Shown here in pieces: positions 32,444 through 35,836 of a DNA stretch of 35,836 bases (its first letter is position 1; the number at the start of each line of letters is the position of its first letter). Position numbers and translations under genes: made by a program. The notes below the pieces were generated by a model. It ran no database searches. It was not told the origin of the DNA and saw nothing but the letters and a program-made list of their open reading frames with translations. Source of the DNA: a virus (Duplodnaviria > Heunggongvirae > Uroviricota > Caudoviricetes); the IMG/VR virus record IMGVR_UViG_3300021400_001778, positions 72,923 to 108,758 of that record; one strand, written 5' to 3'.

Positions 32444-33043
32444 TTACGCACTCTTCTTAGCCGCCTTCTTTGCCTCACGCGCCGCCTTGCGCTCAGCCTT
32501 ACGAGCCTCAACTGCCTTTGACTGCTTTGCAGTCATTTCTCCTCCTGCGAGAACTTTGGACGGGTCGAAGCAGAACGTCCACGCCCCACGCCAGTAGCCT
32601 GCGTCGAACTCAGCCCCGAAGTAGCGGCTCAGGTCAGCCCAATCGGACTTAGCCACTCTCTCTGCGAGAGAGACACGCCAGACCTTTACGGACGGGTCAT
32701 CTGTGCGAGTTGCCTGCTCGATGTTGAACTTGCAGTTCAACATGAGTCCCTTACCGTTTTCAGCGTTCGGCTTCGCCGTTGCGGTGGTTGCTTTGCTCTC
32801 AGCCTTCGGCTGTGTCTTGCGTACCCGTGTAATGCCGCCGACCTTTTCGACCTCAGCCTTCGGCTGCGCCGCCTTTGTTGCCTTGCTTTCAGCCTTCGGC
32901 TGTGCCTTCTTGGTTGCCTTTTCAGCCTTCGGCTGTTCGTCACCAACGAGTGCTTTGTACATCACGGCAGCTTCTTCGAAGCTGAATCCTGCGTTTACGA
33001 GTGCCTTAAGTGCCTGTGCCTGTTTTGCGTTGATTGTTGTCAT
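32444..33043 (-). CDS. First early gene: 199-aa Lys/Ala-rich protein with QPKAE repeats and a Trp-rich globular domain
   Basis: True start MTTINAK after AAGGAGG (the track's 299-aa version extends into non-coding RNA); stop lies in a 9-bp hairpin with GTAA loop. Confidence 0.85.
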   Translation of the reverse strand: MTTINAKQAQALKALVNAGFSFEEAAVMYKALVGDEQPKAEKATKKAQPKAESKATKAAQPKAEVEKVGGITRVRKTQPKAESKATTATAKPNAENGKGLMLNCKFNIEQATRTDDPSVKVWRVSLAERVAKSDWADLSRYFGAEFDAGYWRGAWTFCFDPSKVLAGGEMTAKQSKAVEARKAERKAAREAKKAAKKSA

Positions 33044-33089
33044 AATGTCCTCCTTCTTGCGCATACTATGCGCCTTTGATATAATATTT

Positions 33090-33728
33090 TTTGTGACCCC
33101 CTTTGTTGGGAAGCCCGTCTTGACGGATTCGAACCGCCTGTCAAGGCTTTCGCCTTGACGCCCTACCCAATGGGCAGACGGGTAGCTCTGAACGTTGGAA
33201 CGGTGTAGTTTCTTGGAAAAGGGTAACTTTAATAGACCTACCCTTGTTAGTAGTTGCAATGATGGCTTGGGTATACTTCGCCAGTTGTGCTTGCTTTTCG
33301 CCCTTTTGCCGCCCTCCTTTTGCGGCTGGCAAGTATAGCCCAAAATATGACATCATGCACTCCGCCACGCGTACTAATCCGACACTTGACCTTCCACGAA
33401 CTTGACAGAGGTAGCGTATACGCGCAAGTGTAGCCCTGCTGCGCCGACATAATAAGCCCATCATGCCTCGCTTGCTCTTACGTTTCTACGATTGCGTAGG
33501 GATAAAGCGTTCCCGTACTCCCTCGAACGTGCATATATGTATTTTTCAGATTTTACCCGTACAGACAAGCGAACTTGTACAGTCAAGTACGGAACATCCC
33601 AATTTACGTTGGGTATGGGATGGGTACAATTTACGACACCCAAAACAACTTTATACAATCATAACAACCACCTCCTTATGTACGGGAAAGAAACTACAAC
33701 CGTTCAACCGCCCGTTCGATTGAACTTG
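33090..33728 (-). ncRNA. Large (~640 nt) structured non-coding RNA or 5' leader
   Basis: Long-range stems 33198-33214/33688-33705 and 33510-33518/33680-33688, 33269-33284/33326-33341, many local hairpins, promoter upstream. Confidence 0.75.
33114..33182 (-). ncRNA. tRNA-like cloverleaf with GAAA tetraloop in place of an anticodon loop
   Basis: CCCGTCT/AGACGGG closing stem, GCCC-ATTGGGTA-GGGC, GTCAAGGC-GAAA-GCCTTGAC, GGCGG-TTCGAAT-CCGTC. Confidence 0.7.
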
Positions 33729-33733
33729 ACTAC

Positions 33734-33761
33734 ATCTTACCACGGTTTCGGTGATTGTAAA
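33734..33761 (-). promoter_or_regulatory. Promoter TTTACA-16-TAAGAT with extended -10 TG, upstream of the structured RNA
   Basis: Minus strand tttaca atcaccgaaaccgtgg taagat. Confidence 0.6.
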
Positions 33762-33938
33762 GAACAAATACATGTTTTTTAAATTCATATTGTGCGACTA
33801 TTAAATGCTTTTTTGCGTTATTGTGTACACAATTAACATATGCCAGGCATGTCGTGTGATTTTTTGGCGCGTTAGTAGTGCCTAACAGAGCTGGAACTAA
33901 ATTATCAAAAGATTTAAACTTTAATTTTTATTTTTGGT

Positions 33939-33953
33939 TATTGTCTGAATATT
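33939..33953. promoter_or_regulatory. CodY-like box
   Basis: TATTGTCTGAATATT, 3 mismatches to AATTTTCWGAAAATT; a weaker one at 34098-34112 (4 mismatches). Confidence 0.4.
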
Positions 33954-34121
33954 TAATGCTATTTCACGCCACCGTCGCGCAATATCCTAAAATAAACGCC
34001 AAAAACTTAATCATAAAATTTTTTAATTTGCTATTGACAAAACAAAATTGTAGTGCTACTGGTACATACAATTCGCACAATTTAAAACATTTTTGCTATT
34101 TGTCAGACAATATTTTGACAA

Positions 34122-34135
34122 TGTAAACGCTTACA
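34122..34135. promoter_or_regulatory. cre site (CcpA / LacI-family operator)
   Basis: TGTAAACGCTTACA matches TGWAARCGYTWNCA. Confidence 0.75.
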
Positions 34136-34157
34136 TTTTGATGTTTAAACAAGTCAA

Positions 34158-34204
34158 CCACTATATCTTGTGGTTTTAAAATATTTTTTGCCTAAATATT
34201 GTGT
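34158..34204. promoter_or_regulatory. Tandem NrdR boxes, pair 1
   Basis: CCACTATATCTTGTGG (34158) and TGCCTAAATATTGTGT (34189), 31 bp apart. Confidence 0.75.
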
Positions 34205-34364
34205 TTTGGACATAGAAAAGTAACATGTGTTACTTATTTTGAAATTGTATAGAATTGTTTGGTTTACGTCATGCATACCGTATTCAAATTGTATATGTTT
34301 GTACACAATTCAATTTTTGCGCTAAACTACGCGGATTTTCAGCGTTCAAATATGATTTTTTAAA

Positions 34365-34382
34365 AATGCATATTTATGCAAT
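34365..34382. promoter_or_regulatory. ARG box (ArgR/AhrC)
   Basis: AATGCATATTTATGCAAT matches AWTGCATRWWYATGCAWT. Confidence 0.7.
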
Positions 34383-34525
34383 TATTCATGTTAGTTAACG
34401 CAAACCTAACCGCTTCGAGTCGCGATTTTGCCCGTATTTATGCCTACTTTAGCGCATAAGGTATCTTTTGGTTTACGTTTTGGTTATGTGAATATTATGT
34501 TTTCAGATTGTTTGCCTAATTGTCA

Positions 34526-34539
34526 TGTAAGTGCTTACA
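34526..34539. promoter_or_regulatory. Second cre/LacI-like operator
   Basis: TGTAAGTGCTTACA, one change from the palindrome TGTAAGCGCTTACA. Confidence 0.55.
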
Positions 34540-34570
34540 AACAACAAACAATTTAAATACAATTAACACA

Positions 34571-34617
34571 ATTCAATATATGGTGGTTTAATAGCTGCTT
34601 ACTACTATATCTTGTGC
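34571..34617. promoter_or_regulatory. Tandem NrdR boxes, pair 2
   Basis: ATTCAATATATGGTGG (34571) and CTACTATATCTTGTGC (34602), 31 bp apart. Confidence 0.75.
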
Positions 34618-34638
34618 TTATACGCATAAGGTAGCCCC

Positions 34639-34687
34639 CGCGCGTGTGCGTGCGCGTATGCTGTGCGCGTTGCGCGTGTGTGCGCGC
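34639..34687. repeat. Alternating purine-pyrimidine (CG/TG) tract
   Basis: Runs of 23, 9 and 17 alternating bases. Confidence 0.8.
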
Positions 34688-34856
34688 CCCTCGCCCGTAA
34701 GCATAAGAAGGAAAACATATCATTTTTTATTGTGTGAAAGTCGATTTTTGCGCGTATTTATGCATACTTTAGCGCGTAAGTAAAAAATAAGCGTGCAAAT
34801 TGGGAGTGATGGAAAAATGTAAAATATATTTGACATTATGGATATTATACACAACC

Positions 34857-34907
34857 ATAAATGGAAATATACACGGAATAAATGGAATTATAACGGTATA
34901 AATGGAA
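34857..34907. repeat. Three ATAAATGGAA direct repeats at 21/20-bp spacing, next to a DnaA-box match TTATACACA (34845-34853)
   Basis: Copies at 34857, 34878, 34898. Confidence 0.75.
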
Positions 34908-34942
34908 CTCGTGTAAAACGTCATTGTGCCGTAGATGAAAAA

Positions 34943-34958
34943 TGTTTCACGTGAAACA
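34943..34958. promoter_or_regulatory. parS: parS centromere site (ParB/Spo0J)
   Basis: TGTTTCACGTGAAACA, inside a perfect 20-bp palindrome at 34941-34960. Confidence 0.92.
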
Positions 34959-34981
34959 TTGGAAAACTAACACGCCAGACT

Positions 34982-35038
34982 TTAGCACTCACATTAAGAG
35001 AGTGCTAATAATCAGCACTCGCATAGATTGAGTGCTAA
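34982..35038. promoter_or_regulatory. Two tandem CIRCE elements (HrcA operators)
   Basis: TTAGCACTC-N9-GAGTGCTAA exact at 34982-35008; TCAGCACTC-N9-GAGTGCTAA at 35012-35038. Confidence 0.95.
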
Positions 35039-35112
35039 CAATTCTTGTCTAATTTTGTTTAAACAAGTTGTTGACGTTTTGACGGACTGTCAACAGGGGG
35101 ACGTTCGGGATT

Positions 35113-35126
35113 CGAACACATGTTCG
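35113..35126. promoter_or_regulatory. Perfect Gram-positive LexA box
   Basis: CGAACACATGTTCG matches CGAACRNRYGTTCG. Confidence 0.88.
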
Positions 35127-35163
35127 GATACGGCATGGGGCGGAATGCCCCCCATTCATTCAC

Positions 35164-35555
35164 CGCGAAAATATCACTAAAACATCACGAACCCCACGAA
35201 AACCACCACGGAAAATCCCACAAAGCACCTTGCACCAACGCATAATCCCCCGAAAATTTCGCGACGGGAAAACACACAATTCCTACGCTAAAATTTACTT
35301 TAGTAAGTTTAATTTTACTAAACTTTTTGTTTACCATTCCCGCGAAAACGCAAAATCCCGCGAAAATTCAAAATTTGCCAAAAATTGCTAAAATTTCTTC
35401 ATTTTTTGTTGTTTTTGCGCGAAAAATCAATGTTTTTTGTTATTTTTGGGCGGTTTTTGTTCATTCCGAGAAATCGCCAAGAGAGGAAATGGCGCGAAAA
35501 AACAGTAATTAAGACATGCGTATTATATGCGGATTTGCGTATTTTGGCGCGAAAA
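35164..35555. repeat. Six CGCGAAAA motifs plus helically phased A/T tracts
   Basis: CGCGAAAA at 35164, 35341, 35359, 35418, 35493, 35548; tracts about every 10-11 bp from 35370 to 35458. Confidence 0.8.
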
Positions 35556-35688
35556 ATTGCGCGGCTGAGTTTTGCGGCTGAGTTCTATTTCTGGAATTCA
35601 TCGCCAAGACAGAAATTTTAACATTGCCGCCGCGGGCGGCTTATAGTTCTCTCCCGCCGAAGAAAATTAAATGCTTATACCACTTATA

Positions 35689-35836
35689 TATTATTTATAA
35701 GACAGATTATGCATATTATGAATAATATTATATTTAATGATTTATATATTATTATTTATTATATATAGATTTATATATATTATTTATGAGACCAATTATG
35801 TATATTATGATTATTATTTATAAGACCAATTATGTA
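35689..35836. repeat. Extremely AT-rich zone with three ~33-bp imperfect repeats
   Basis: TATTATTTATRAGAC.ATTATGYATATTATGA at 35689, 35778 and 35812 (last one truncated by the window end). Confidence 0.8.

Follow-up and report, generated by a model that had tools for sequence, protein, structure and literature searches.

Large ornate RNAs of bacteria and phages are rare, and we know of none with a known function. Genes for two of them, GOLLD and ROOL, often adjoin tRNA genes. In eukaryotes, a tRNA-like element sets the 3' end of the long non-coding RNAs (ncRNAs) MALAT1 (with mascRNA) and MEN-beta, where RNase P and RNase Z make the cuts. The bacterial RNA YrlA, which is ~100-200 nt long, has a long Ro-binding helix in place of an anticodon arm. 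GOLLD and ROOL are reported to assemble into homo-oligomeric RNA-only cages, as seen by cryo-EM (bioRxiv 10.1101/2024.12.08.627333), and YrlA is reported to be a Y RNA that mimics tRNA and is a ligand of Rsr/Ro60 (Chen et al. 2014, PMC4201824). Here we describe an RNA encoded in IMG/VR virus record IMGVR_UViG_3300021400_001778 (Caudoviricetes, 108,758 bp), of which the final 35.8 kb (35,836 nt, hereafter the window) was analysed. The RNA occupies most of the ~685 nt between an early promoter and the ATG of the first gene (33043, minus strand), a stretch with no conserved open reading frame (ORF).

The RNA is a conserved multi-helix non-coding element and represents a new family among the large structured RNAs of phages. 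Its transcription would run in the early-gene sense, provided that the conserved promoter is used. We think it somewhat more probable than its opposite that this is the founding member of an undescribed family, located in the early-operon leader of ~110-130 kb gut phages and processed as proposed below. Assignment to a new family follows from the lack of Rfam 15 matches in five members. No covariance model in Rfam 15 matched at its gathering score anywhere in the window, and at E<=10 only two chance matches (a snoRNA and a microRNA precursor, both E >=6) were obtained for 32900-34000. Four other family members gave no GOLLD, ROOL or other family at E<=1. Thus, of the two options offered by a first-pass annotation made from the sequence, a divergent GOLLD/ROOL member or a new class, the second stands: the models for ROOL (RF03087) and GOLLD (RF01998) do not recognize this RNA. 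The likeness to ROOL and GOLLD lies in size (500-800 nt), many helices, occurrence in phages or prophages of Bacillota and their neighbours, and proximity to tRNA-type sequence. Unlike them, this RNA is part of an mRNA leader, has a closing duplex between its 5' and 3' parts, and includes a mini-ORF and its own anticodon-less tRNA-like 3' domain.

Homologues were found through the first gene. Its product has 46 clusters of relatives (43-99% identity) in metagenome assemblies, and contigs fetched for twelve of these clusters each carry an RNA homologue, with no sense-strand gene call, in the 0.5-3 kb upstream. Gene callers placed no sense-strand gene in the RNA stretch on any homologous contig. 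One extra full-length copy (L058) came from a motif scan and is the sole true homologue among the matches listed. The family now comprises 16 distinct sequences (window included) from gut metagenome contigs, one of them 5'-truncated. These form clade A (window, L058, L026, L023), with sub-clade A2 (L016, L018) in which the centre is replaced, clade B (L020, L027, L028, L294) and clade C (L021, L029, L030, L033, L035, L036). Positions 1-20 of the L036 contig (TGTGTATAAGAGACAG) are Nextera adaptor, an assembly artefact that was trimmed before analysis. Members measure 556-723 nt from the predicted start site to the first ATG. From 5' to 3', the family-wide parts are the promoter, a 5' hairpin (H1), a Shine-Dalgarno sequence with mini-ORF (not in L027) and blocks X1, X2 and X3; in the 3' portion these are followed by GUAGGUCUAUUAAAGUUACCCUUUU, the tRNA-like element, a CCCC/GGGG hairpin, AUAUUAUAUCAAAGG, a GCGC hairpin and the ribosome-binding site (RBS).

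Compensatory changes among the homologues were identified in the closing duplex (P1), X1-X3, X2, P6 and the cloverleaf. The collection of homologues and their covariation, which the first-pass annotation had named as a check, thereby bear out its proposal of a large non-coding RNA at the start of the early transcript. P1 is an interrupted duplex of ~30 bp that forms, in every clade, between the first ~50 nt and the ~35 nt separating an invariant sequence motif from the tRNA-like element. An inverted-repeat search places its arms at 33688-33708 and 33194-33214, 473 nt apart, with a 17-bp core and one bulge, exactly the type of stem (17 bp, one bulge, ~470 nt apart) initially noticed. By RNAduplex, P1 is worth -30 to -37.5 kcal/mol whichever clade is considered (z -4.5 to -6.8 when the 3' strand is dinucleotide-shuffled). 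Pairing is much weaker when the two strands come from different clades (-15 to -28 kcal/mol, versus -30 to -37.5 for cognate strands), and thus we conclude that the two strands changed together. In the main helix, at least four positions differ between clade A (window; 5' strand GAACGGUUGUAGUUU, partner AAACUACACCGUUC) and clade B (L020; GAACUGGCAUGGUUU, AAACCAUGCCAGUUC), and all are compensated, as are two further differences between L020 and L028 and one between A and A2. Because MAFFT misplaces the 5' third between clades, support for P1 is drawn from per-sequence duplexes and from the matrix of cognate and non-cognate energies.

The other core helices show similar upkeep. One X1-X3 pair is U-A in seven rows, A-U in one and G-C in two. 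In X2, three stem pairs have compensatory changes (C-G/U-A/G-C, A-U/C-G/U-A and U-A/G-C). P6 is the 15-bp internal stem of the first-pass annotation and is kept with three sequences: GGG(C)UAUAC/GUAUACCC in A and B, CCCUAUUCA/UUGGGUAGGG in C and CCGCAUCUA/UUAGGUGCGG in L035. The stem of H1 is likewise retained with other sequences in clade B (GUUCAAAACG/CGUUUUGAAC) and clade C (UUCAAGUGA/UCACUUGGA). Overall, the RNA in the window has a minimum free energy (MFE) of -221.6 kcal/mol, compared with -193.6 +/- 7.1 for dinucleotide shuffles (z = -3.96), so that it folds better than shuffled sequence, a comparison also asked for at the outset. In six family members z lies between -2.3 and -5.3, and in 6/6 the antisense strand folds less stably than the sense strand. 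G-U pairs in the stems are consistent with the minus strand as the RNA.

Several smaller claims of the same annotation can be settled here. The promoter at 33734-33761 was recovered by consensus scan, and its TTGACA/TTTACA-16/17-TGnTAAGAT layout is kept in clades A and B at the same distance from the first hairpin; transcription would start near 33727. The UUCG- and GNRA-type loops are present (UUCG at ~33573-33570, GAAA at 33151-33148), and a terminator scan agrees that no canonical terminator precedes the first gene. The 9-bp stem is present as a complement in the window, but no family-wide support for it was found. Repeated GUCAAG is locally enriched, with 7 of the window's 29 copies of GTCAAG within 33119-33730 (~610 nt; ~10 copies are expected by chance in the whole window), but is clade-specific: it is absent from the clade C homologues and thus does not define the RNA. 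Three features escaped the annotation: the tRNA-like domain, the mini-ORF and a motif that IS110 elements also carry.

Located at the 3' edge of the RNA is a 70-nt element that is a tRNA derivative kept for shape, not decoding. We draw this conclusion because there is no anticodon loop, the linkers are atypical and family scores lie far above those of true tRNAs. The cloverleaf is the MFE fold in all variants. In a clean alignment (A5), 95.6% of cells are paired and 9/23 pairs are compensatory, a count reached by 0/500 shuffles, and controls in which the structure was slid give at most one. Four of the seven acceptor-stem pairs are compensated between clades A and C (CCCGUCU/AGACGGG versus GCCACCG/CGGUGGC), and the hairpin that substitutes for the anticodon arm (a 7-8-bp stem with a 3-4-nt loop) is largely rewritten between them. 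The D arm (GCCC-AUUGGGUA-GGGC) and T arm (GGCGG-UUCGAAU-CCGUC) resemble those of genuine host tRNAs and align with host tRNA-Thr and tRNA-Arg. The D loop keeps GG, the T loop is UUCGAAU, and GGUUCGA is invariant across the family, ~90-100 nt from the ATG. Between them, the D-loop GG and T loop would form a tRNA elbow, the feature recognized by RNase P and RNase Z. Elbow-bearing tRNA mimics are defined by their acceptor stem, a D loop with GG, a UUCRANY T loop and compensatory upkeep; the element shows all four and belongs with them. Family members score 76-94 bits with the covariance model R1 (Infernal effective sequence number 1.76) and true tRNAs score 16-34 bits; the best matches in 151 Lachnospiraceae genomes are tRNA-Thr(GGU) and tRNA-Arg(CCG). 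The element lacks the 7-nt anticodon loop of the tRNA class and is not detected by tRNA models: ARAGORN finds no tRNA or transfer-messenger RNA (tmRNA) genes in the window, and RF00005 does not match 32900-34000 at E<=10. In clade C a tRNA-Sec match is obtained, but below threshold (24.7 bits versus a gathering score of 47).

This element invites comparison with other tRNA-like RNAs. As in MALAT1/mascRNA, a long structured ncRNA is followed immediately on its 3' side by a cloverleaf whose anticodon arm is shortened, but that system is eukaryotic and has no downstream mRNA, and in the phage RNA processing is a prediction and the junction linkers differ from those of tRNA. YrlA also has tRNA-like D and T arms without decoding function; the phage substitute for the anticodon arm, by contrast, is a short capped hairpin, and it is carried on a much larger RNA. 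As in tmRNA, a tRNA-like part and a short reading frame occur in one structured RNA. The topology is different, as the phage cloverleaf is contiguous whereas that of tmRNA is made from the two ends of the RNA. In addition, the phage mini-ORF is only 2-3 codons long and has its own Shine-Dalgarno sequence and AUG, whereas the tag-peptide frame of tmRNA has no start codon; a pseudoknot ring was not identified, and no Rfam tmRNA model matched.

The best conserved block of the RNA includes a 24-nt motif that is present in a single copy in the phage record. A scan with the pattern TAGGTNTNTTANNGTTACCCTTTT returned at least 120 loci in a metagenome collection and at least 120 in a reference-genome collection. 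Among the matches listed, the genome loci are nearly all from Lachnospiraceae or from related Clostridia of the gut; often one genome has several of them, or they lie at the ends of contigs. Outside the phage, the motif loci are right ends of IS110-family insertion sequences (ISs): the upstream ORFs carry DEDD_Tnp_IS110 and Transposase_20 domains, and a same-strand IS110 transposase gene lies upstream in 132/137 loci with enough upstream sequence, among the matches listed. In the ISs, the motif is located past the transposase stop codon, 30-55 nt ahead of an outward TTGACA, which is the -35 half of the IS110 junction promoter (Durrant et al. 2024, PMC11208160). The motif is invariant in 35 otherwise unrelated IS110 right ends, the same four positions vary in ISs and phage RNAs, and individual phage-IS similarities extend to 33-45 nt. 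Given this invariance on both sides, with the same four positions free to vary, we read the motif as a probable sequence-specific recognition site common to the phage RNA (or its DNA) and the ISs. The sharing of the motif with Lachnospiraceae ISs also suggests that the host group of these gut phages is probably Lachnospiraceae.

The resemblance to IS110 right ends is confined to the motif and its variable positions. A profile of the phage RNA matches IS loci at the motif only, and a PF01548 search found no IS110 transposase in the phage record. RNAalifold on the 35 right ends found no conserved structure around the motif, and single-sequence folds gave no common hairpin. The bridge RNA of IS110 elements is encoded beside the recombinase gene, in the long non-coding left end (Durrant et al. 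2024, PMC11208160). The shared motif is in the short right end, so that together with the lack of a PF01548 match, the phage RNA does not qualify as a bridge RNA. A literature search on motif strings gave no match. The idea that the motif is a full terminator was rejected, since P1 cannot form without sequence that lies beyond it. Similarity of the motif to the 16S rRNA 3' end (GGUAAC-GUAGG and a pyrimidine tail), considered as 16S mimicry, was judged to be within chance expectation.

In many IS copies, CGAAC-N4-GTTC occurs between the transposase stop codon and the motif (L200 3128-3141; also L041, L053 and L277). This matches the consensus of the LexA (Cheo) box of Firmicutes and is a hint that the IS110 elements concerned are under SOS control.

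Table 1. Parts of the RNA and its flanks in the window, listed from promoter to first gene (all on the minus strand)
Feature	Position	Sequence or composition	Remarks
Early promoter	33734..33761	-35 TTTACA 33761-33756; 16-nt spacer; TG-extended -10 TAAGAT 33739-33734	Consensus scan
5' hairpin H1	33702..33725	GUUCAAUC / GGUUGAAC	
Closing duplex P1, 5' strand	33688..33705	GAACGGUUGUAGUUUCUU	Outer segments extend to ~33727
9-bp complement	33688-33680 with 33514-33506	UUCCCGUAC / GUACGGGAA	~170 nt apart; read off the sequence
Shine-Dalgarno and mini-ORF	33651..33677	AAGGAGG 33677-33671; AUG AUU GUA UAA 33662-33651	
Block X1	33527..33555	UAAAAUCUGAAAAAUACAUAUAUGCACGU	3' part pairs with X3; anchored alignment and RNAalifold, per-pair counts
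Hairpin X2	33446..33467	Conserved loop GGGCUU(A)	Anchored alignment and RNAalifold, per-pair counts
Block X3	33341..33363	GGAGUGCAUGAUGUCAUAUUUUG	Partner of X1; closes ~170-nt domain
Helix P6	33269..33341	33341-33326 with 33284-33269	15-16 bp; encloses sub-domain
Most conserved block	33217..33241	GUAGGUCUAUUAAAGUUACCCUUUU	Contains 24-nt motif UAGGUNURUUARRGUUACCCUUUU
P1, 3' strands	33183..33214	AAGAAACUACACCGUUC 33214-33198; CGUUC 33194-33190; AGCUA to 33183	
tRNA-like cloverleaf	33113..33182	Acceptor 33182-33176 with 33120-33114; D arm 33175-33160; 8-bp GAAA-loop hairpin 33159-33140; T arm 33138-33122; discriminator 33113	70 nt; hairpin replaces anticodon arm
G-C hairpin	33097..33110	CCC-N6-GGG(GG)	Begins 3 nt past discriminator; all members, varied loops
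First-gene leader end	33041..33087	Invariant AUAUUAUAUCAAAGG 33087-33073; hairpin GCGCAUAGUAUGCGC 33073-33059; RBS AAGAAGGAGG 33058-33049; ATG 33043-33041	

The RNA has little coding potential beyond the mini-ORF. A Shine-Dalgarno sequence and an ORF of 2-3 codons (MIV, MIE or MT) occur at this place in 14/15 members for which the 5' end is available, as AUG AUU GUA/GUG stop in clade A, AUG AUU GAA/GAG stop in clade B and AUG ACA UAG in clade C; third-codon changes (GUA/GUG, GAA/GAG) are synonymous. There is a resemblance to lambda bar minigenes and to the STAB-SD elements (5' Shine-Dalgarno stabilisers) of Bacillus mRNAs, in that a strong Shine-Dalgarno sequence precedes an ORF of 2-3 codons (AUG AUU ...) within an early leader of a phage; one member of the phage RNA family (L027) has no mini-ORF. 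Longer ORFs (65-107 aa) exist in the window's RNA, the longest of which (107 aa, 33141-33464) is found in clade A only, has poor Shine-Dalgarno spacing and has no relative among 5.8 billion proteins. Two members (L027 and L035) have no ORF >=30 aa. With neither a conserved frame nor database relatives, there is no indication of a protein-coding gene, in line with the lack of a credible long ORF reported initially.

The first gene (32444-33043, minus strand) encodes a 199-aa protein with QPKAE-type low-complexity repeats flanked by conserved N- and C-terminal parts, for which Pfam, PHROG and Atlas gave no lead. It is linked to the RNA in every case seen, and its product is a candidate partner of the RNA. 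More than 30 kb of co-directional genes lie downstream of the RNA. Every credible gene in the window is on the minus strand, including those for a DnaE-type polymerase and a DnaB helicase; the closest relatives of the polymerase (37-39% identity) are from large phages and one phage-like plasmid record of Bacillota.

On the other side, the RNA region is bordered by 2.1 kb of ORF-free, repeat-rich sequence at the contig end. The ~2 kb at 33800-35836 has 26-40% GC, lacks ORFs and extends to the contig end, and it contains several short direct-repeat families, including four copies of GCGCGAAAAATCA at 35358-35559 and three of a 32-nt unit at 35682-35836. Homologous contigs often stop 1-3 kb upstream of the RNA. 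The AT-rich repeat region is possibly an origin or a genome terminus.

Searches of other collections did not extend the family. A blastn search of INPHARED with the region gave no match, and no IMG/VR loci with relatives of the first two gene products were found. Scans with the pattern GCGAAAGC-N10-GGTTCGAATCC returned only type II tRNAs and unrelated elements, and with ATTATATCA-N13-TGCGCAAGAA in IMG/VR only unrelated coding regions. The RNA was not found in 401 Lachnospiraceae genomes by BLAST with the 3' 162 nt, or in the 151 genomes with the tRNA-like covariance model; matches were due to chance or to genuine tRNAs. On three unrelated viral contigs (L005 1998-2026, L006 7288-7316 and L008 296-324), a conserved structured element that ends in GGUUCGAAUCCCCC and has a hairpin capped by GCGAAAGC is located directly upstream of a tRNA gene.

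The nearest relative phage in IMG/VR (L010; 80-85% nucleotide identity in core genes) lacks the RNA as well as the first four genes. In their place (1780-2820) is an unalignable, ORF-free ~1-kb leader ahead of a different first gene, without similarity to the RNA family (nhmmer, no match at E<=10). This leader has a T-arm-like GGCGG-UUCGUGUC-CCGUC at ~2170-2225, with a 7-bp hairpin just before it, and it may be an analogous leader RNA. Upstream of it (960-1160) is a dense array of TATCGATA-type palindromic repeats that look like iterons or operators. Also present in the phage record under study, outside the window, are a HEARO RNA (RF02033, 131.7 bits; G000:C1:48268-48481 minus, equal to L013 8268-8481) and a four-tRNA cluster (G000:C1:61280-63236 minus). 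HEARO is the omega RNA of IscB-type nucleases, and the strength of the match suggests that the phage probably carries an IscB/OMEGA element. The cluster comprises Ile-UAU, Gln-UUG, Leu-UAA and an odd 67-nt tRNA (62397-62463) that Rfam calls a tRNA (46 bits) and ARAGORN fuses into a doubtful 'tmRNA' call.

The anatomy of the RNA suggests how it may be processed. Host RNA polymerase would co-transcribe the RNA and the early genes, since there is no terminator between them. Host RNase P would then cut 5' of the tRNA-like element (33183|33182), and RNase Z past the discriminator (33113|33112). Just past the discriminator come one or two U, and CCA is not encoded. This is the substrate type of RNase Z in Bacillus subtilis and the ground for placing the second cut there. 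RNase III may also cut the closing duplex, a plausible site. Predicted products are a ~545-nt ncRNA with both ends protected by the closing duplex, a 70-nt tRNA-like RNA, and an early mRNA with a new 5' end 3 nt before a protective G-C hairpin, for which this hairpin would act as a 5' cap. The arrangement of promoter, leader hairpin, flanking duplex (an RNase III substrate), tRNA(-like) spacer and genes is shared with bacterial rRNA operons and phage T7 early RNA, but the phage RNA has no rRNA homology in Rfam 15. Processing from the early mRNA, raised as a possibility in the first-pass annotation, is plausible in light of the tRNA-like element at the 3' edge. As the motif is shared with IS110 ends, the released ncRNA may bind a host or transposon-associated factor by sequence. 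A more specific version, that the RNA is a self-contained processing unit whose end-paired core captures an IS110-linked factor via a motif taken from host IS110 transposons or held in common with them, possibly as a ROOL/GOLLD-like RNA particle, is speculative and we consider it rather improbable.

Several points weigh against a processed RNA. Cleavage at the tRNA-like element is something that we infer from its modelled fold, and RNase P and RNase Z may not accept the element because the junction linkers are atypical: only 0-1 nt stands in for U8/N9 and 1-2 nt for the variable loop. An extra A separates the T stem from the 3' acceptor strand, and clade B has a mismatch, C-A, as its first acceptor pair. 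Only three clades make up this small family, and the tRNA-like model has the low effective sequence number given above; independent compensatory events are thus few. Between-clade alignment of the 5' third is uncertain; full-length MAFFT alignments misplace it, RNAalifold on these yields fragments only, the main closing helix was not recovered from them, and a covariation count for P1 on the MAFFT alignment failed. The centre and the mini-ORF are dispensable, given that the former is replaced in A2 (L016, L018) and the latter is missing from L027. A purely cis-acting role would fit the same anatomy.

Such a role is the main rival to the processed-RNA reading, and we regard it as possible though not probable. 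It supposes a regulatory leader from which no stable RNA is released and which would tune how far the early genes are read through to or translated, whether through attenuation, through processive antitermination or by hiding the ribosome-binding site. Its working parts would be competition between H1 and P1, the mini-ORF, a weak hairpin with U4-6 at the motif, and a CCCUUUU run resembling an anti-Shine-Dalgarno sequence. In all clades the 3' arm of H1 overlaps the 5' strand of P1, so that the two compete, and near-universal conservation of the Shine-Dalgarno sequence and mini-ORF (14/15) also speaks for this reading. RNAalifold pairs CCUUUU of the motif with the first-gene RBS (AAGAAAGG) in 14/14 sequences, and in clades A and C RNAduplex joins this run to the region where the mini-ORF is initiated, but these pairings use invariant columns and therefore have no covariation support. 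The position ahead of >30 kb of co-directional genes is one where antitermination would be useful; on the other hand, neither known attenuators nor elements of the put/EAR type need anything near 556-723 nt with a tRNA-like module. The hairpin at the motif did not score as a terminator, and transcription must normally pass the motif since P1 requires sequence downstream of it. Alternatively, the tRNA-like module and/or the motif may serve as a decoy that titrates a host protein early in infection, such as a factor recognizing IS110 right ends, a defence nuclease aimed at tRNA or an enzyme of tRNA processing. Retention of the tRNA elbow without an anticodon, invariance of the motif in phage RNAs and 35 IS110 right ends, and the promoter position, from which this RNA would be the first made in infection, fit a sponge of this type. 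We nevertheless consider it improbable, as it lacks a known partner, the phage record has no IS110 transposase gene, and the closing duplex, mini-ORF and conserved core would be left unexplained.

The remaining explanations are weaker still. A functionless relic, in which a decayed tRNA gene and an IS110 right-end remnant persist in a hypervariable early region, could account for the tRNA-like D and T arms, for the 33-45 nt match to IS110 ends and for absence of the RNA and the first four genes from the closest phage. It is very unlikely and disfavoured by the compensatory changes that keep the acceptor stem, anticodon-arm substitute, P1, X1-X3 and P6 paired across clades, even though the neighbouring protein has diverged to 45-60% identity between them; moreover, the motif is the best conserved block and the profile search gave no IS homology beyond it. 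That the RNA is a highly divergent GOLLD or ROOL is less likely again: size class, Bacillota phage context and the link to tRNA-like sequence are circumstantial, whereas neither RF01998 nor RF03087 nor any other Rfam 15 model matches at the thresholds used (E<=10 for the window region, E<=1 for four members), and the conserved blocks are matched by no Rfam model. Hardly credible is a function in encoding small proteins, either the 107-aa and 65-aa ORFs or the tripeptide as sole product. ORFs of this size exist in the window, and the mini-ORF has a strong Shine-Dalgarno sequence and synonymous third-codon changes, but the long ORFs are not conserved and are missing from L027 and L035, the 107-aa ORF has neither a protein relative nor good Shine-Dalgarno spacing, and a tripeptide cannot account for ~600 nt of covarying structure.

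In summary, the new family provides an independent further case of a large ornate RNA, and one with experimental handles. These include its fixed position at the head of the early operon and the mini-ORF, which is itself testable. The 16 sequences in three clades are enough for a covariance model and for mining of metagenomes and metatranscriptomes. Its 3' module, being tRNA-like, suggests that processing of the MALAT1/mascRNA type may have a counterpart in bacteria. Its invariant motif, which also marks hundreds of IS110 right ends in gut Lachnospiraceae, points to a sequence-specific factor common to the phage and a transposon family and, if the core does capture an IS110-linked factor, this would be a phage RNA that plugs into transposon biology.

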